A stretch of DNA of 64,000 bases from a phage. Below the pieces are notes generated by a model. The model did no database searches. It was not told the DNA's origin and saw only the letters and a program-made list of their open reading frames with translations. A program made the translations under genes and the position numbers. Positions 22,769 to 44,138 of the stretch are shown here, piece by piece; the first letter of the stretch is position 1, and every line of letters starts with the position of its first letter. The stretch is taken from sequence record PZ452584.1; one strand, given 5' to 3'.

Positions 22769-23287
22769 TTAATAACCTCGGTCTTGACGAGCGAAATTTT
22801 CAGCATTTTTCAGATAATAAAGTTTAAAGATTTCTTCAGCTGTAAGACCAAGACCCTGGAACATATTCAGAACGAAATGAAGAATATCAATCATTTCAAA
22901 TTTAATTTCTAACTGGTCTTGCGGAGACAAATCAGTAATCAGAGTTTCACGACGTTCACCATGCTGCGACTTCCAAGGTTTCCATACAGCAGATGCATCT
23001 TTTTCGCCATTGCTCATACCACCAAGAGAAGTCAGAAGTTCGCGGAATTCATCATCAATATAATCTTTCTGATTACGCAGCCAATCAACAACTTCACCTG
23101 CAGTAGCCAAATCATCAGGATGACGGTTATATTCAGGTTTATCTTTAGCTAAACGAATCTGTAGAGATTTCTGCATATCAAGCATTACCTGCAGCGGGTC
23201 TTTTTCATCACCGAGAATATCCCAATATTCATTTTGAGCTTTATCAGCGCCTTCAATCAGTTGTGAACATTCATTAAAGTATGCCAT
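22769..23287 (-). CDS. 56: dCTPase/dUTPase gp56 (MazG-like NTP pyrophosphatase)
   Basis: ORF track trimmed to internal ATG (M32, MAYFNEC...), about 172 aa like T4 gp56; the listed N-terminal extension is non-coding read-through. Confidence 0.85.
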   Translation of the reverse strand: MAYFNECSQLIEGADKAQNEYWDILGDEKDPLQVMLDMQKSLQIRLAKDKPEYNRHPDDLATAGEVVDWLRNQKDYIDDEFRELLTSLGGMSNGEKDASAVWKPWKSQHGERRETLITDLSPQDQLEIKFEMIDILHFVLNMFQGLGLTAEEIFKLYYLKNAENFARQDRGY

Positions 23288-23321
23288 TATTTTTCCTTTC
23301 AATTCATGGGTTAGTAGATTA

Positions 23322-23345
23322 ATTATACAATAAATATATAAAGCA
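23322..23345 (-). promoter_or_regulatory. middle (MotA-dependent) promoter candidate for gene 56
   Basis: Minus strand TTGCTTTA (MotA box) 11 nt upstream of TATAAT; approximate. Confidence 0.5.
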
Positions 23346-23358
23346 ATAAGGAGGACAT

Positions 23359-23559
23359 ATGGTACAAAAATTAATGGCACTTGTTAATGCCATAAAAGGT
23401 AATAAAAAACGTATAGCTTTTACTATTTCTGCTATGATAGGAATTTTACTCTGGAATTTTGTTTTATCACCAATTGCTATTGCTCATGGTGTTAATATTC
23501 CAGTAATTACTCTTGATACATTCGTAGATTTAGCATTTGCTTTGGTTGGGTTAATTTAA
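23359..23559 (+). CDS. candidate small membrane protein 66 aa on the opposite strand
   Basis: Only plus-strand ORF not inside a minus-strand gene; ATG preceded by AAGGAGG at optimal spacing; two predicted TM helices; no homolog known to me. Confidence 0.3.
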   Translation: MVQKLMALVNAIKGNKKRIAFTISAMIGILLWNFVLSPIAIAHGVNIPVITLDTFVDLAFALVGLI

Positions 23560-24584
23560 ATCTTAGCATATTTAGATAGCCGCATTTTAGCCATCAACCC
23601 TTGGGCAATATTATTTTTCATATATTCCATAATTTGTTTAGGGGTTGCACCTTCCTTTCTAATCATATCATTAACATCTTTTGATTTCCAGGGAGATTTA
23701 TCCCAAAACATAACCCTTTCTCCTGCATCAACTAATTTAGTCATTCGCTTAATAGTGTCAGGGTGACGAGGTTCATTATCTAAAACCCACACTCGTCTAT
23801 CTTTAAATGGAACAACTTCTAGGTCTAATTGACCACCCGTAATAGCTATACCATTTTCAATAAAAAGTGAATCTATAGGTCCTTCTAGAACATATACATC
23901 GCCATCTTTAACTCGTTCGACTCCATATATTTTTGTTGCCTCAGGATAAGCTTTAATGGTGATATATTTTTGAGGAGCATCTTTCTTTAATGCGCGTCCT
24001 TGAAAAGACTCAGCCTTTCCGTCAGCATTATAAATTGGAATAACAAGACGAGGCTCAGAAATTTCCTTTTTATATGTTCCCGGTACTATGCTATTAACTA
24101 ATTTAGGCCATTCGGTTGTAAACCAAAGATATTTCCATTTATCCTTTGGAATACAACGAGCTTTTACATATTTTATAATTGGATGGTCTTCCGCCAGTTT
24201 ATCTAATCTAACACATGACGGAAGAGATTTAATTATTTTCTTCTCAGGTTGTTTAGGAAGTTCTTTAGGTTTTTCTACTGGACGACTTTTACCTTTTTCT
24301 TTTCTTATTTCAAAGATATACTCACGATATAAATCAGGTTCAAACTCCTTTAAATATATTCCGATTGGTGCATGATAGTTACAGTTATAACAATGAATAT
24401 TTCCTTCATTATTATCACCATAATACCATCCACGCGCTTTATTTTGGTCGGTTTTTGAATCTCCACATACTGGACATCTAAACCGCAATTTAAAAGTTGA
24501 ACTATTATTTACTTGTGTGAATTTAGGTAAATGAGCTAATGCACGATACGCAAACTCATTATCAATCCAAGGTATTGATGACAT
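23556..24584 (-). CDS. 61: DNA primase gp61
   Basis: 342 aa, same length as T4 gp61; N-terminal zinc-binding CPVCGDS...CYNC. Confidence 0.95.
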   Translation of the reverse strand: MSSIPWIDNEFAYRALAHLPKFTQVNNSSTFKLRFRCPVCGDSKTDQNKARGWYYGDNNEGNIHCYNCNYHAPIGIYLKEFEPDLYREYIFEIRKEKGKSRPVEKPKELPKQPEKKIIKSLPSCVRLDKLAEDHPIIKYVKARCIPKDKWKYLWFTTEWPKLVNSIVPGTYKKEISEPRLVIPIYNADGKAESFQGRALKKDAPQKYITIKAYPEATKIYGVERVKDGDVYVLEGPIDSLFIENGIAITGGQLDLEVVPFKDRRVWVLDNEPRHPDTIKRMTKLVDAGERVMFWDKSPWKSKDVNDMIRKEGATPKQIMEYMKNNIAQGLMAKMRLSKYAKI

Positions 24585-25475: not shown

Positions 25476-25733
25476 TTATTTTAAAACTTCTGCATAATCA
25501 CATGTTACAAACTGTTTCTCTAACTTGACGATTTTACGAAAGTATCTTTTGCATTGACGAATCTGTCGCTTCGTAGGGCGCACAGCAAACTTAATAAATT
25601 CCACTCGACCAAATGGAGGACTTTCTTCTGGTGGAATATCTAACACCAATTCCCACGTATCTGCAATAAGTGCTTTGAATTGCGTATTTTTCCTGACGTT
25701 ATACGGAGTAGGTTTAAATAAAACAATATGCAT
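25476..25733 (-). CDS. hypothetical basic protein 85 aa (61.4 position)
   Basis: ORF track; ATG start. Confidence 0.55.
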   Translation of the reverse strand: MHIVLFKPTPYNVRKNTQFKALIADTWELVLDIPPEESPPFGRVEFIKFAVRPTKRQIRQCKRYFRKIVKLEKQFVTCDYAEVLK

Positions 25734-25734
25734 A

Positions 25735-25917
25735 TTATCCTCGGCAATCTACTTCACATACTTGCTTGTCATCAACGAAAGCTTTAACTAATGCTTTATT
25801 AACTTCAGCATATTGAGTAGTAGCCCATTGAACGTCATCTTTCATCATTGTGATTTCTTTAGTAAACATGCTTTCATTCTTAAACCACCCCATAAAAACT
25901 ACCTTTACCAATTCCAT
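25735..25917 (-). CDS. dmd: Dmd, antitoxin against host RnlA/LsoA RNases
   Basis: 60 aa, same length as T4 Dmd; sequence recognised; immediately downstream of gene 41. Confidence 0.85.
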   Translation of the reverse strand: MELVKVVFMGWFKNESMFTKEITMMKDDVQWATTQYAEVNKALVKAFVDDKQVCEVDCRG

Positions 25918-27412: not shown

Positions 27413-27757
27413 TTAAAAGAATTTAAACTTTTTCTTTGACCTTTTATTAAATGCATCTTGTAGTTGCATTGTAATACATTTTTCTACATGAGGAGCTAAC
27501 TCAGCTTTTCTTTCTTGGTCAAGAACAGCAAAGTCCATTACAACCTTTCCATTAACCCAATCTAATTTTGTCACATACACAATGTGTGTAGAACCATCTT
27601 CTAGTTTAATGACAATCTCCTGGATAACATTTTCCATAGCGGATTTAATTATCTTAAGAGACTCATTAAAAAGACGTTCTTTTCTTTCTTCTTCCCCCTC
27701 CGAAGAGGGGGATTCATCGATAATTTCTAGATCTAAATCTAAATCATCTTTATTCAT
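27413..27757 (-). CDS. 40: gp40-like protein (head vertex assembly)
   Basis: ORF track trimmed to internal ATG (M7), giving 114 aa; position between uvsX and 41. Confidence 0.65.
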   Translation of the reverse strand: MNKDDLDLDLEIIDESPSSEGEEERKERLFNESLKIIKSAMENVIQEIVIKLEDGSTHIVYVTKLDWVNGKVVMDFAVLDQERKAELAPHVEKCITMQLQDAFNKRSKKKFKFF

Positions 27758-28931
27758 TAAATTCTTCCATATCACTTAGCTGATCTAGGTCAGTTTCTAA
27801 ATCAGCCGCTGATTTACTTTTACTTTCTGGAGATTTAAATTTTTCAACTTTTGAGTTAATTAATTCATCAACTTCCGCTTCAACAATTTCATTACTATCA
27901 ATAGCACCTAACTGATAAGCACGTTTAATAGCATCTCGGAATGGTTGATGCTTAAATAAAGGACCCCAGAATGTAGTGCAGTTAGTATCTTTTGCACGCC
28001 AAGATTTTTCTTCGCGAATCATCTCGCCGGTTTCTTCGTCAAGAAATTCACGAGCATACCAACCATTCTTAGGTTTTACAACAAATCCTAATTCTAGAGC
28101 CATATCTAACAATCCAGAATAAGGATCGATACCACCGTCAAATTTAACATCAATAAAGAATTTACTTTTTTCTTTAACGGTACGAGATTTTTCTACATTT
28201 AGAACAAATTGATACCCCTGAAGATCAGAACCATCTTTAATCTGACGTTTACCGATAATGAATACAGTATCAGCCGAATACATTACGCCTGTACCACCTG
28301 TCATCACGGTTTTACTAAACATTTCAATTGTTTCAATTGTATGGTTAACCGCAACACATGGAATATTTTTAATGCTAAAGTAAGGAGTAACAATACGGAA
28401 TAATGACTTCAGTGATTTAGCACGAGTCATATCTGCCACAGATTTTTCATTCAAGGCATCTTCCGTTTCTTTCTTAGAAGCCATATTACCGATTGAGTCG
28501 ATGAATACAATAACTTTTTCACCGCGCTCAATAGCTTCAAGCTGATTCACCATATCAATTTTCAGCTGTTCAACTGACTGGATTGGCGTATGAATTACTC
28601 GTTCCGGGTCAACTCCCATGGATCGCAAATAAGCTGGAGTAATACCAAATTCACTATCATAGAATAGACAAACCGCGTCAGGATATTTGTTTAAATATGC
28701 CGCAACCATAGTCAAAGACATATTTGATTTAAAGTGTTTAGAAGGACCTGCAAAAATGGTTAAACCAGACTGCATACCGCCATCAATCGCACCAGAAATA
28801 GCGATATTAAGCATTGGGATTTTTGTACGGATTACATCCTTTTCATTAAAGAATTTAGATGTAGTCAGTTCAGCAGTCATTTTAGAAGTGGAAGCTTTAA
28901 TCAAACGGGATTTTAAATCTGCAATAGACAT
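27750..28931 (-). CDS. uvsX: UvsX recombinase (RecA-like)
   Basis: 393 aa; near-identical to T4 UvsX across the length as I recall it. Confidence 0.95.
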   Translation of the reverse strand: MSIADLKSRLIKASTSKMTAELTTSKFFNEKDVIRTKIPMLNIAISGAIDGGMQSGLTIFAGPSKHFKSNMSLTMVAAYLNKYPDAVCLFYDSEFGITPAYLRSMGVDPERVIHTPIQSVEQLKIDMVNQLEAIERGEKVIVFIDSIGNMASKKETEDALNEKSVADMTRAKSLKSLFRIVTPYFSIKNIPCVAVNHTIETIEMFSKTVMTGGTGVMYSADTVFIIGKRQIKDGSDLQGYQFVLNVEKSRTVKEKSKFFIDVKFDGGIDPYSGLLDMALELGFVVKPKNGWYAREFLDEETGEMIREEKSWRAKDTNCTTFWGPLFKHQPFRDAIKRAYQLGAIDSNEIVEAEVDELINSKVEKFKSPESKSKSAADLETDLDQLSDMEEFNE

Positions 28932-29008: not shown

Positions 29009-29851
29009 TTAATCAACTGCTATTGGATGAATAGCATTAAACTTATGAAATGCTTCTGATTTTTCTTTACGCGAAACACACATGCGAAGAACCTTTAATG
29101 GCTCGTCTTCTTCACCCAACGATTTTCGTTTTTCAATATTAGAAGTTTTCCAACGAGCTTGCTCTGGAAACTCTCTATTGATTTGCTCAAGCGCTCTATT
29201 ATGTTTAGAATTACTACGAATTGAACTACACCCACCAGGAGCTTGTGCTTTTCCAGATACAACCAGATATTTGAACAAGGCCAAATGCGGATAACCTTGA
29301 TTAATTAAATTGAGAAATGCATACATATCTTCGCACAAATCAATTTTTCCATACCCAATTTGTTCTGTCGTAAGTTTTCCAAGGTCATACCATGTATTCG
29401 TGAATCCATATGAATTTTCACGATAATTACCCCAAGATGAAGTAATTTTAAAAATTGGTAGGCGAGCATGACCGTGATAATACCCGCAATCCATGGCATC
29501 TTCGACGTATTGAATCAATTCATAGAACTGTTCATGAGTCAATTGATTGACTTTATCCACGCAACGACGGTCATCTCTTTTTCGCATTGAACTCATACGA
29601 ATAGTAGTATCATCGTCAATCATCCAGATTCGTTGGCCTGCATACATATCAGTAATTGCTTTACGAGTACCGGCAATTCCGTTTACATCATCAGGAATAG
29701 TTATAATTTTAGCTCTAGACCCATAGGCATCATAATAAGCTTTTTCTTCATGTTCACGCACTACAATATGGGGTTCATAATCAGTCGGAAACATATCAAG
29801 GGCAGAAACTGCCCCGACACGCTGATAACTTGGAATTACGAATTGAATCAT
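29009..29851 (-). CDS. putative glucosyltransferase, DxD (GT-A-like); candidate beta-glucosyl-HMC alpha-glucosyltransferase
   Basis: ORF track trimmed to internal ATG (M3), 280 aa; occupies the T4 beta-gt slot between uvsX and 42 but is not T4 beta-gt; WMIDDD motif. Confidence 0.55.
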   Translation of the reverse strand: MIQFVIPSYQRVGAVSALDMFPTDYEPHIVVREHEEKAYYDAYGSRAKIITIPDDVNGIAGTRKAITDMYAGQRIWMIDDDTTIRMSSMRKRDDRRCVDKVNQLTHEQFYELIQYVEDAMDCGYYHGHARLPIFKITSSWGNYRENSYGFTNTWYDLGKLTTEQIGYGKIDLCEDMYAFLNLINQGYPHLALFKYLVVSGKAQAPGGCSSIRSNSKHNRALEQINREFPEQARWKTSNIEKRKSLGEEDEPLKVLRMCVSRKEKSEAFHKFNAIHPIAVD

Positions 29852-30588
29852 TTCCACTCACCTTTATAGTCTTTTTTCACAATATGAGTTTCGCCAGTAT
29901 TCCACCAATGATCAACCAAGTAAAAATGACGAGAATATACATGAAGACTTCCAACATTCCATATAATAGAACCTGCTTTATACTGACGAGTTGAATCGCC
30001 GACATTCAAATCAGATACTAATTTATCTAATACGTATTTTTGCCATGCATAATCATTACGGAATCCGAAGACCACGTCATTTGAGCGCATGCTTACTACT
30101 GCATTGACTTTCTTATCACGAATCAGGTACTGTACTGTATTAGTACACATGAAATCTGACATACCATCTTTATTGTAGTCAAATTGCATGGATGGACGAG
30201 TATAAATCATGATACCACGTCGAGAATCAGGATTTTGACCAAGTTCAGCTAAACACATATCATACTGGGCATAGTTATCTTCTGACCAAATAGCCCAACC
30301 ATAATTCGAGTTAATTTCGCCTTTAGAAGATGCTACCTGCTGCCAAATCTTTGGTGTTTCGCCTGGAATATCTTTAACAAACAAGCTCTTAGATTTATAC
30401 CATTCAAGTTCACGCTGAATGTATTCATCATTAAGAGCGCCAAAAATAAACGGTTCATCTGCTACAAATGATGCGCCAATAATTTCAATAGTTTTAACAC
30501 CAGTTTTATCAACTACGAAATCTTTTTCTTTTAATGCAAGCCCCAAATGAAGACGGATTTCTTCAACTGTCATAGAGTCACTAATCAT
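29848..30588 (-). CDS. 42: dCMP hydroxymethylase gp42
   Basis: 246 aa, same length as T4 gp42; thymidylate-synthase-like fold. Confidence 0.95.
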   Translation of the reverse strand: MISDSMTVEEIRLHLGLALKEKDFVVDKTGVKTIEIIGASFVADEPFIFGALNDEYIQRELEWYKSKSLFVKDIPGETPKIWQQVASSKGEINSNYGWAIWSEDNYAQYDMCLAELGQNPDSRRGIMIYTRPSMQFDYNKDGMSDFMCTNTVQYLIRDKKVNAVVSMRSNDVVFGFRNDYAWQKYVLDKLVSDLNVGDSTRQYKAGSIIWNVGSLHVYSRHFYLVDHWWNTGETHIVKKDYKGEWK

Positions 30589-39838: not shown

Positions 39839-40693
39839 TCACAATGAAGAAAATTCTTTAACTAAAGCCTGTAATGAAGCCTCTATTGGATATCCATTCT
39901 TAACTAACATTTTCCTAAACATCACATGTTTAGGACGATTATATGATATCCACAATTCATACAATTTATCTTTATTATCCCAATGATAGCCTTTTCGTCG
40001 AGATGCTATATGAGCTTTTCTAATCTCCGGATTTTTCCAACTAGCAGCTACTGAATTTGATATAGCTATTTTATATTCAGGTTTTGATAAAGCAGCACGA
40101 ACAGCCTTTTGGTGTTTAATTTTATTTTCTTCGTTATTAAACCATTCCCTTGAAGCCATTGAAATTTTTTGTTTTGTTTTAAAATTATTTAATCTTTCTT
40201 TGTTATCTTTCCTATTTTTTGCTACTGAAAAATATTTTAATGCCCTTTCTCTAGCAGCATTTCTATTTTGCGGATTTGAATAATATTGTTGAAGCCTTTT
40301 TGATATTGTGTCACTTACATCTTGTTTTATAAAACTATATTCAGCAGCTATTAAATCAACTTCGGCTAAAGATAAATTTTTATATGTTTTTCCTGACATC
40401 ATTCTATTTAAAGCATTTAGCATTTTTCCATTTTTACCTTTTGCTAATAAGAAATGTGCTTTAAAATGATTAAAATGACTTAAATTAACTAAATTCCATG
40501 TAGATTTTAAATATTCAGGAAATATTGATTTAGGAAGCACGTGATGTGCTTCCGTTTTACCTGGAGTTTTAACAGTTGAATTCATAGAAATAAAATTAAT
40601 GTAAGACTTGGCGTCTTCTTCACTCAACGCTAATTTTTCAACTAATTCCTTTATTAAAAATTCATCATTAATGTCAAGTTTAAAATTCTTCAC
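39839..40693 (-). CDS. putative HNH homing endonuclease (Mob-like) 284 aa
   Basis: HH...N...H pattern (EAHHVLPKSIFPEY...NLVNLSHFNHFKAH) plus repeated basic DNA-binding modules; paralog of the ORF at 48376-49215; inserted between 46 and 47. Confidence 0.7.
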   Translation of the reverse strand: MKNFKLDINDEFLIKELVEKLALSEEDAKSYINFISMNSTVKTPGKTEAHHVLPKSIFPEYLKSTWNLVNLSHFNHFKAHFLLAKGKNGKMLNALNRMMSGKTYKNLSLAEVDLIAAEYSFIKQDVSDTISKRLQQYYSNPQNRNAARERALKYFSVAKNRKDNKERLNNFKTKQKISMASREWFNNEENKIKHQKAVRAALSKPEYKIAISNSVAASWKNPEIRKAHIASRRKGYHWDNKDKLYELWISYNRPKHVMFRKMLVKNGYPIEASLQALVKEFSSL

Positions 40694-41140: not shown

Positions 41141-42156
41141 TGTGTTGCCTCTACATATAACTGATTTGCATATTGAATAAGTGCTTCACGGTCAGAATCA
41201 GTGATGTCTGGAATTGCATTAATGTATTCTTCCATCAACGTCTGAAGAGATTGAACTTCAACTTCTTCACTGTCATCTGACTCGACAGAGTTATCAATCT
41301 TTGACACAACTCGTAATGAATGCACAACTTTTTCTAGTTCAGATTCGAACTTCGTCAGATTTTTGTCTACTTCAGTTACTATAACACGTACTGATAGATT
41401 TGTAAAATCTTTATAGTCAATTTTTCCTTTAAATGGATAATGAATTCTACGATGCCAGGTAGTATTGTTTGGAATAAATTCCATTCGTTCTGTTTCTGTA
41501 TCAAACATCCAGAACCCGCGAGGGTCATTCTCGTCACCTGCAGTTAGTGTCCATGGTGTCCCAATATATCTGACGTTAGCAGCCTCAGAGATAGTATGGA
41601 AGTGACCAGACCACACCTCTTTATAAGTCTTAAGGAAATCAGGTTCAAGACCATGAGATTTCATTCCTTTATAAAAATAAAATCCATTCAGTTCCCAGTG
41701 ACCAACACAAAAAGAAGCAGAAGAAGTTTTTATGTGCTCGAGAATTTCACCAGTATTTTCTTCACACATCCAAGGAATTAAATCAATTAAACATCCGTCA
41801 AAATCTACTGTAGTAGGCTTATCATATACTTTAACATTAGGATATTTAGCCAAAAGCTCAGTAGAGGCATTTGGATGCATTACATTTTTGTAGTGGAGAT
41901 CGTGATTTCCTACAATAGTATGTAATGTGATTCCAGCGTCATCAAGCATTTGAACTATTTCACGGGCAAACTCCATAGTTTTATGTGTGATTGCTTTTCG
42001 CACATCAAAAATATCACCATATTGAATCCATACAGTAATTCCATTTTTCTTAGAATATTCTATCGCTTGCTTAATTCCATCAATTTGAATACCGCGAATC
42101 CACTCATCATCAGCTTTAACGCCTAAATGCCAATCACCCGAGTTTAGTATTTTCAT
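41137..42156 (-). CDS. 47: recombination exonuclease gp47 (Mre11/SbcD-like phosphoesterase)
   Basis: 339 aa, same length as T4 gp47; metallophosphatase motifs DWHLG, GDIFD, GNHD. Confidence 0.95.
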   Translation of the reverse strand: MKILNSGDWHLGVKADDEWIRGIQIDGIKQAIEYSKKNGITVWIQYGDIFDVRKAITHKTMEFAREIVQMLDDAGITLHTIVGNHDLHYKNVMHPNASTELLAKYPNVKVYDKPTTVDFDGCLIDLIPWMCEENTGEILEHIKTSSASFCVGHWELNGFYFYKGMKSHGLEPDFLKTYKEVWSGHFHTISEAANVRYIGTPWTLTAGDENDPRGFWMFDTETERMEFIPNNTTWHRRIHYPFKGKIDYKDFTNLSVRVIVTEVDKNLTKFESELEKVVHSLRVVSKIDNSVESDDSEEVEVQSLQTLMEEYINAIPDITDSDREALIQYANQLYVEATQ

Positions 42157-42766
42157 GGTGTCTTTTCCATCCTAATTTAGCTGCTTTTGAAACTAGTTCT
42201 TTAATTTTTCCTTTTGTCCATTCAGGACCAGGAGGTTCATGACATAACATTTGCTTAACTCCGTTATTATACCATTTTTTACCTTTATTATGTGATGAAG
42301 CTTTAAATTTATTTGACCTTCCTTTTACATAACCTTCTGGAATATAAGGCAAAAAGGCAGATTTTCCTGTTAATGGATCATGTGAATGTATATTTCCTTT
42401 ACAATTATGAGAACCATATAATGGATGATTTTGTCCTTTATTATCTCTTCCAAATGAACCTTTTGGAGCAGCATATGACATATTAAAGAATAATGGATTT
42501 TTAACTGCATCATGCAATCGTTGATAATATAACTCGCATTTAATAGCTTCTTCACGCGTATCAAATTCAGCTAAAATGCATGAATCAAATAAGTGAGGAT
42601 TATCTGAAAGCTCTTTATTATAAATTTTCTTATACTTTTTAGATAAAACTGAACCATGATATCCAGCTAAATGCCTATCTAAAGACGTAGATCCAATATA
42701 AAAAGGAGGAAGTTTATCTCCACTATATATATTGTTAAATAAGTTATATATTTTTTCATATATCAA
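42134..42766 (-). CDS. GIY-YIG-like homing endonuclease (Seg-like), possibly degenerate
   Basis: N-terminal NIY-x8-YIG with downstream R and E, then N.P.YG linker motif typical of free-standing phage endonucleases; no in-frame ATG before the catalytic motif (TTG start listed). Confidence 0.5.
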   Translation of the reverse strand: MIYEKIYNLFNNIYSGDKLPPFYIGSTSLDRHLAGYHGSVLSKKYKKIYNKELSDNPHLFDSCILAEFDTREEAIKCELYYQRLHDAVKNPLFFNMSYAAPKGSFGRDNKGQNHPLYGSHNCKGNIHSHDPLTGKSAFLPYIPEGYVKGRSNKFKASSHNKGKKWYNNGVKQMLCHEPPGPEWTKGKIKELVSKAAKLGWKRHHENTKLG

Positions 42767-42935: not shown

Positions 42936-44138
42936 TTATTTTGTAATAATGTCAAACTGTTCTTTAAAGCAGAAGCTTGAATCTTGATGCTGATACAAAA
43001 ATTCATAAGCTTTTTCACGTTCACGGTCATAAAGAGCTCGGTCAGATGACAGTTCTTTAATACGTTCAAATGTTGATTCCATGTCATTTTCATCAAACCA
43101 AACGATACCGCTATCATGTGAAATTAACGGAGTATTATCAACACGGAATTTTAAATTTTCGCCAGTAGATTTCCAAAATACCGGAATTGTTCCACATGCA
43201 CCAAGCTCGAGATGAGTATATTCTAAAGAACGTTGTAGATATTTTTTATCCAACTTACTCAACTGATAACCAAAACCGGATTTACTCATACGTTCAAGCA
43301 TTTCGCTATTTACATAACGGTCAAGAATTTGCGTTGGTAAATTAGGAGCAATTTTAATTTGGTCTACTTGATGAAGACGATAATACTCGTATGGAATTCC
43401 TTTTTCTTTAATAGGAATGAACGCTGGAGAACGTTCCAGACCTTCCATAATAGTACTTAGTCCTGCAGGTTTAAGATGTTTTTCGTGAAAATCAAACATC
43501 TGATAAAAACCTTTCCATGTAGTCGTACGACCAATCCAACGGTTGATATTCATGTTAATTTCAGAAACATCTTTCCAGTAGGTTGATCGAACCTTCGCAA
43601 TATCCATAGGAGGCTGAAAGTTGTATACGGTCGGTGCTTCTTCAATGTCATCAAACAGAGAAACTGTTTCAGGATACCATTCTTTCATCAGAACTTTATT
43701 AAAATCGCCATTATCAGAATGACTAAAAATAACATCAGCTCGACGAACAGTTTCTTCTAATCCCAAATTTCGACGCAAAGAAAGAGAAGAATGGTCATGC
43801 TGATAAACTACAACACGAACCGAAGGTTTAATGTTATCAATAATTTTTTTATAGTTATTAATAGTGTCTTCTTCAACTGAAGTAGCAGGAACTGAATTGA
43901 TAATTAGAATATCACAATCATTTACCAGCTTAAGTGTTTTATCGTATTCTTTTGCCAATAAAACCGGAATTGAAAATGATTTATAATCATGTGCACAGTT
44001 ACGAGTAAATGATTTATCTTTAGCATAAACCAAAGTTACTTCATGACCATTTTTAATAAACCAATCACGTTGCTCAAGAGAAAATTTAGTTACACCACAA
44101 CCTTCAAGACCTCGAGCCATAAAAATACATACTTTCAT
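42936..44138 (-). CDS. agt: alpha-glucosyltransferase
   Basis: 400 aa, same length as T4 alpha-gt; N-terminus recognised. Confidence 0.9.
   Translation of the reverse strand: MKVCIFMARGLEGCGVTKFSLEQRDWFIKNGHEVTLVYAKDKSFTRNCAHDYKSFSIPVLLAKEYDKTLKLVNDCDILIINSVPATSVEEDTINNYKKIIDNIKPSVRVVVYQHDHSSLSLRRNLGLEETVRRADVIFSHSDNGDFNKVLMKEWYPETVSLFDDIEEAPTVYNFQPPMDIAKVRSTYWKDVSEINMNINRWIGRTTTWKGFYQMFDFHEKHLKPAGLSTIMEGLERSPAFIPIKEKGIPYEYYRLHQVDQIKIAPNLPTQILDRYVNSEMLERMSKSGFGYQLSKLDKKYLQRSLEYTHLELGACGTIPVFWKSTGENLKFRVDNTPLISHDSGIVWFDENDMESTFERIKELSSDRALYDREREKAYEFLYQHQDSSFCFKEQFDIITK

Follow-up and report, generated by a model that had tools for sequence, protein, structure and literature searches.

Organization of the uvsX-gene 42 region

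The stretch of DNA analyzed here, in the following called the window, comprises 64,000 nucleotides (sequence record PZ452584.1) of a genome of about 167 kb, and all statements on the absence of genes refer to these 64 kb. It is an AT-rich early region (about 34% GC) of a T-even phage. The genes considered are located on the minus strand, with the exception of the small ORF dam.1. Over 25 kb, the best matches were vB_EcoM_Lutter and PhiZZ23, with about 97% identity. Therefore, the phage can be regarded as a typical mosaic member of Tequatrovirus that does not duplicate any deposited genome exactly. The part that extends from uvsX to gene 42 shows 98.6% DNA identity to Escherichia phage AR1.

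The downstream boundary of this part is formed by uvsX (27750..28931), which codes for the recombinase and matches the Pfam families T4_UVSX_C and RecA. On the other side, gene 42 (29848..30588) encodes the dCMP hydroxymethylase, a member of the thymidylate synthase family which makes the hydroxymethyl-dCMP precursor. Its protein differs from the AR1 counterpart by one residue. Between both genes lies an ORF of 280 aa (29009..29851, minus strand), here named ba-gt, which starts with an ATG at 29851 and ends with a TAA at 29011-29009. Mechanical ORF detection places the start at a GTG at position 29857, two codons before the ATG. We prefer the ATG, since it overlaps the stop codon of gene 42 (ATGA) and is the annotated start in AR1 and T2. 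The ATGA overlap suggests that gene 42 and ba-gt are translated together. A scan for promoters and terminators around ba-gt gave no more sites than were found in shuffled sequence.

In T4, the interval between uvsX and gene 42 contains the homing endonuclease gene segA and the beta-gt gene, coding for a protein of 351 aa. An earlier note on this DNA had claimed a transferase of non-T4 type in the beta-gt slot, and the 280-aa ORF was found there at exactly the expected position. segA is absent from the window. A second glucosyltransferase gene, alpha-gt, is located at 42936..44138 on the minus strand. Its product is a DNA alpha-glucosyltransferase of GT-B fold, which makes alpha-glucosyl-hmC, the acceptor of the ba-gt product. 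Along its whole length, the protein matches the T4 alpha-gt structure (PDB 1XV5, E=5e-257), so that the description as T4-like in the same note is confirmed. It is 99% identical to the proteins of T2, AR1 and NR1 and 91% identical to that of T6. The context of ba-gt is thus the gene order uvsX, ba-gt, gene 42, with alpha-gt and the dCMP hydroxymethylase supplying the acceptor.

Two further ORFs were observed on the minus strand close to alpha-gt. The first, of about 210 aa (42134-42766), is situated between gene 47 and alpha-gt and is an addition with no equivalent in AR1, T2 or T6. PHROG 10820, which comprises homing/HNH endonucleases, is matched with E=5e-91, and a weak GIY-YIG match lies below the Pfam cut-off. 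This ORF probably represents the insertion of a mobile homing endonuclease. The other one, an ORF of 284 aa (39839-40693), is located between genes 46 and 46.1. It matches PHROG 655, likewise a homing endonuclease family (E=8e-45), but no Pfam family. T6 has a hypothetical ORF of this size in the corresponding place (T6ORF054), and AR1 has none.

Family identity of the 280-aa protein

For classification of the 280-aa protein, profile searches and comparisons with known phage proteins were combined. PHROG 842, annotated as beta-glucosyl-HMC-alpha-glucosyltransferase, matches with E=6e-89. The Pfam family PF20691 (TAGT, "TET-associated glycosyltransferase") matches with 39.1 bits (cut-off 27.5), and the match extends over residues 3-207 of the protein and positions 2-205 of the 205 profile positions. 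The protein is 100% identical to that of AR1 and 99% identical to those of T2, T6 (two records each) and NR1. From the T6 protein it differs by two residues (Y40N, D55G), from the T2 protein by three (R11H, H106R, P251S; the same in two independent T2 records). No similarity to the T4 beta-gt was detected: a BLASTP comparison with the 351-aa protein gave E=0.28 at best, over 10 residues, and tblastn revealed no T4 beta-gt homologue in the 64-kb window (best E=1.5).

Based on these results it is very likely that the ORF encodes the T2/T6-type beta-glucosyl-HMC-alpha-glucosyltransferase (glucosyl-DNA beta-glucosyltransferase; TAGT), in a phage that, like T6, does not carry the T4/T2 dam gene. 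No feature of the sequence speaks against this assignment. The T2/T6 pattern assumed in the earlier note is thereby borne out by the homology search which the note had proposed. The same holds for its description of the protein as an unrelated transferase of DxD type, as a DDD motif is present and the predicted fold, described below, is GT-A/GT2-like.

The closest relatives are the ba-gt proteins of T6, T2, AR1, NR1 and QOTSP, which agree with it in length, show 99-100% protein identity and are likewise encoded between uvsX and gene 42. These five phages also share the partner genes alpha-gt, gene 42 and gene 56 with the window. The alpha-gt of the window is the allele of T2, AR1 and NR1 (99%) and not that of T6 (91%). 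The T4 beta-gt (GT63, PF09198) occupies the same genomic slot and, with UDP-glucose as donor, likewise attaches glucose to modified phage DNA in beta linkage. In contrast to ba-gt, it is a GT-B enzyme with hmC as acceptor, while ba-gt encodes a GT-A protein with alpha-glucosyl-hmC as acceptor, and the two have no sequence similarity.

Conserved residues and predicted structure

For identification of conserved positions, we used an alignment of 122 TAGT sequences, which reaches down to about 17-20% identity. R11, D80, D175, G186 and G207 are invariant in this alignment, and I6, P7, R63, D79, D81, L180, G206 and R212 are conserved in at least 90% of the sequences. All of these residues are retained in the protein of the window. 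Two motifs stand out, IPSYQR at residues 6-11 and DDD at residues 79-81, the latter following a hydrophobic strand.

A structural model was calculated with AlphaFold2. The prediction from the single sequence was unusable (pLDDT 39) and was replaced by a model based on the 122 homologues, which reached a pLDDT of 95.1 and a pTM of 0.92. A sequence search of the PDB gave no solved relative (the best match, with E=1.5, was irrelevant). Using Foldseek, the top PDB matches to the model were all GT-A/GT2 enzymes, namely AvpGT, WrtF, the K4 chondroitin polymerase (K4CP), TarP and TarS. They were found with a probability of 1.00, TM-scores of 0.44-0.53 (query-normalised) and 10-15% sequence identity. 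These bacterial enzymes share the GT-A fold, the N-terminal nucleotide-binding strand motif and an acidic motif of DxD type with the phage protein. They differ by the low identity, by a TM-score of about 0.5 and by their acceptors, which are teichoic acids, glycans or small molecules and not DNA. The model, which is confident, has a GT-A/GT2-like fold with the conserved residues D79-D80-D81. The TAGT of T6 was also modelled as a GT-A fold and placed as sister to the GT2 family (PMC13216743).

Predicted DNA modification pathway

The window itself shows the identity and intactness of the genes, the fold with its conserved motifs, the synteny and the lack of dam and beta-gt, while the chemistry and the ratios of the modified bases are taken from published work on near-identical phages. 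Gene 42, alpha-gt and ba-gt are intact, gene 56 is present and the T4 beta-gt is missing. With this set of genes, the modification would proceed as follows. The gene 42 product would make hydroxymethyl-dCMP and the gene 56 product would remove dCTP, which leads to 5-hmC in the phage DNA. The alpha-gt would then move glucose from UDP-glucose onto hmC in alpha linkage. Finally, the ba-gt protein, a GT-A enzyme with the DDD motif, would attach another glucose to alpha-glucosyl-hmC through a beta-1,6 linkage and thereby form gentiobiosyl-hmC. Without the T4 beta-gt, no beta-monoglucosyl-hmC would be expected, and about a quarter to a third of the hmC would be left unglucosylated. The mechanism of the ba-gt protein is probably inverting, since glucose is alpha-linked in the UDP-glucose donor and would be beta-linked in the product, and since the fold resembles that of GT2 enzymes.

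The chemistry is described for several relatives. TAGT of T2 and T6 glucosylates hmC which is already alpha-glucosylated and yields gentiobiosyl-hmC (PMC13216743). In the Durham phages NR1 and QOTSP, LC-MS revealed about one third 5-hmdC, about two thirds alpha-gentiobiosyl-mdC, a low amount of alpha-glc-mdC and no beta-glc-mdC (PMC13390438). Gentiobiosyl-hmC was also measured in T6, and the position of TAGT was described as syntenic with the T4 beta-GT (PMC13390438). A T6 phage with deleted ba-gt contains only alpha-glucosyl-hmC and shows greater sensitivity to the Brig1 glycosylase (PMC11078745). At the ba-gt locus, NR1 and QOTSP rank with the phages that match the window best (98.3% DNA identity), and the NR1 proteins encoded by ba-gt and alpha-gt are 99% identical to those of the window. 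By analogy, the DNA of the window phage is expected to be T6/NR1-like, with about two thirds gentiobiosyl-hmC, about one third hmC and little alpha-monoglucosyl-hmC.

It is conceivable that the TAGT protein described here differs in specificity from the T2/T6 enzyme, either by using another sugar or by acting directly on hmC, or that it is inactive. The family is large and diverse, as an exhaustive profile search revealed 2169 representative clusters at E<=0.001. Solitary TAGT genes, accompanied by neither alpha-GT nor beta-GT, occur in 288 of 753 phage genomes (PMC13216743), which means that specificity is not uniform within the family. A single substitution can have an effect as well, as may be the case for R11H in T2. 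Against this, the protein is the same as that of AR1, lies only two to three residues away from the genetically and biochemically defined enzymes of T6 and T2, and keeps every invariant TAGT residue. Moreover, the near-identical phages NR1 and QOTSP make gentiobiosyl-hmC. A different or lost activity is therefore extremely improbable, and the T2/T6-type activity is the reading we follow.

ba-gt alleles of T2 and T6

The share of gentiobiosyl groups is 5% in T2 and 72% in T6, though the enzymes of the two phages are 99% identical. Consequently, the ratio of mono- to di-glucosylated hmC is not readable from the sequence. The T2 gene (L004:10283-11125; L011:2286-3128) carries R11H in both independent records, at the arginine that is invariant among the 122 aligned sequences. 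In the window, as in AR1 and NR1, the IPSYxR motif still has its Arg11. NR1 combines a T2-like alpha-gt allele with H106R and yet contains about two thirds gentiobiosyl-hmC (level from PMC13390438). Neither this alpha-gt allele nor H106R therefore explains the low value of T2. From the sequence comparison, one tentative possibility, which we consider less likely than not, is given by the remaining substitutions: the ba-gt allele may set the mono-/di-glucosyl fraction, with R11H (or P251S) being hypomorphic in T2 and the window phage being T6-like. If true, this would explain the long-known difference in gentiobiosyl content between T2 and T6.

The two public T6 records each show a different lesion in ba-gt. 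In MH550421 (L003:8138-8980), a TAG is found at codon 10 and the gene is annotated from Met20. In AP018814 (L010:7135-7974), one Asp of the DDD motif is lost in frame. These lesions are either mutations of laboratory stocks or sequencing errors. The gene of the window has neither the TAG at codon 10 nor the deletion in DDD.

The dam locus between genes 56 and 61

In T4 and T2, the gene for the Dam methylase, a GATC N6-adenine methyltransferase, is located between genes 56 and 61. The gene order in T4 is 56, dam (780 nt), 61, and in T2 it is 56, dam, one extra ORF, dam.1, 61. In the window, gene 56 (22769..23287, minus strand), coding for a dCTPase/dUTPase of 172 aa from an ATG at 23287, and gene 61 (23556..24584, minus strand), coding for the DNA primase, are separated by an interval of 268 nt (23288..23555). 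Retained in this interval are the promoter region of gene 56 and dam.1. In a three-way alignment, conservation with T4 extends for about 265 nt downstream of gene 61, then the T4 dam promoter and gene are missing, and the sequence of the window resumes at the gene 56 promoter. According to the alignment, the dam cassette is cleanly absent. The same junction without dam is present in T6 (two records), AR1 and NR1. Compared with T4 and T2, only the locus (gene 56, dam.1, gene 61) is conserved.

Most of the gap between genes 56 and 61 is filled by dam.1 (23359..23559), a conserved hydrophobic ORF of 66 aa on the plus strand, which is named after the T6 record. It is convergent with gene 61, overlaps the gene 61 stop codon and matches PHROG 2024 (E=8e-31). 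The ORF is annotated in T6, T2, AR1 and NR1, and T4 shares the conserved DNA on which it lies. The earlier note had described this region as about 270 nt long and without space for dam. Length and absence of dam were correct, but the gap is not empty. The likeness to T2 and T6 drawn there also applies to dam only in the case of T6, as T2 carries the gene.

A search for dam across the window gave no credible match by any of three approaches. In tblastn with T4 Dam, the best match (E=0.022) covered 47 aa on a non-coding strand. The DNA pattern coding for DPPY had no match in the window. The motif (D/N/S)PP(Y/F/W/H) occurs in no long ORF of the 64 kb. Its only occurrences were in a frame of 17 codons and in a roughly 90-aa ORF (25476-25748), which is too short to encode a methyltransferase. 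Since the T4/T2 dam gene is missing, as in T6, the sequence predicts that the phage would encode no GATC adenine methylase of its own. In contrast to T2 and T4, T6 is not known to induce a DNA adenine methylase. We found no usable explicit statement in the literature that T6 DNA lacks m6A.

A methylase of the dam family might be encoded outside the 64-kb window, in which case the phage would not be Dam-negative. There is a precedent in the Tequatrovirus T4_ev240, where a different Dam-like gene is located between nrdA and nrdB (L006:3992-4783), a region which lies outside the window. Its product of 263 aa contains the motifs FCGG and DPPY and shows 33% identity to T4 Dam, with 70% of the query aligned. 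In AR1, however, whose ba-gt protein is identical to that of the window, nrdA is directly followed by nrdB, and the complete genome contains neither an annotated methyltransferase nor a DPPY-coding pattern. This screen used annotation tables and the DPPY-coding pattern (with T4, T2 and T4_ev240 as positive controls) and is weaker than a profile search. The record counts point in the same direction. T4 Dam has matches at E<=1e-5 in 940 phage records, including 215 of Escherichia and 19 of Shigella phages, whereas the stretch from uvsX to gene 42 is matched by 423 Escherichia and 67 Shigella records. Most of such phages are therefore without any Dam homologue. We consider a methylase gene elsewhere in the genome highly unlikely and regard the phage as T6-like with respect to dam.

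GATC is the most depleted 4-nt palindrome of the window, with 62 sites observed and 204 expected from a Markov model (ratio 0.30). An explanation of this depletion by the loss of dam was rejected, as the density is similar (about 1.0-1.2 sites/kb) in those regions of T4 and T2 in which dam is located.

Distribution of the layout and significance for phage defence

The arrangement uvsX, ba-gt, gene 42 is widespread. At a threshold of at least 80%, the stretch was found in 475 phage records, which belong with few exceptions to Tequatrovirus phages of Escherichia, Shigella or Yersinia. The contiguous junction of genes 56 and 61 without dam was found at a coverage of at least 80% in 323 phage records, and a Dam of T4 type with at least 90% identity in about 180. 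The pairing of alpha-GT and beta-GT was described in only 6 of 753 phage genomes encoding glucosyltransferases (PMC13216743). The pairing of alpha-GT with TAGT is the norm and the majority layout in Tequatrovirus, and T4 is the outlier. The distinct modification state predicted by the earlier note is accordingly distinct relative to T4 only; within the genus it is the commonest state.

The ba-gt gene itself is no new find: public annotations name it, genetic data support its function, and the predicted modification state was measured in near-identical phages. Knowledge of the gene dates back to the T2/T6 era, and its assignment in the window is a routine annotation of a described system. Its importance results from the sugar pattern of hmC, which decides which host defences can attack a T-even phage. 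The defences affected by these sugars are McrBC, GmrSD/BrxU, the Brig1 glycosylase, type II restriction enzymes and CRISPR-Cas. Assignment to the T6 type, with gentiobiosyl-hmC, no beta-glucosyl-hmC and no phage Dam, is useful for the choice of therapeutic phages and for the prediction of host range.
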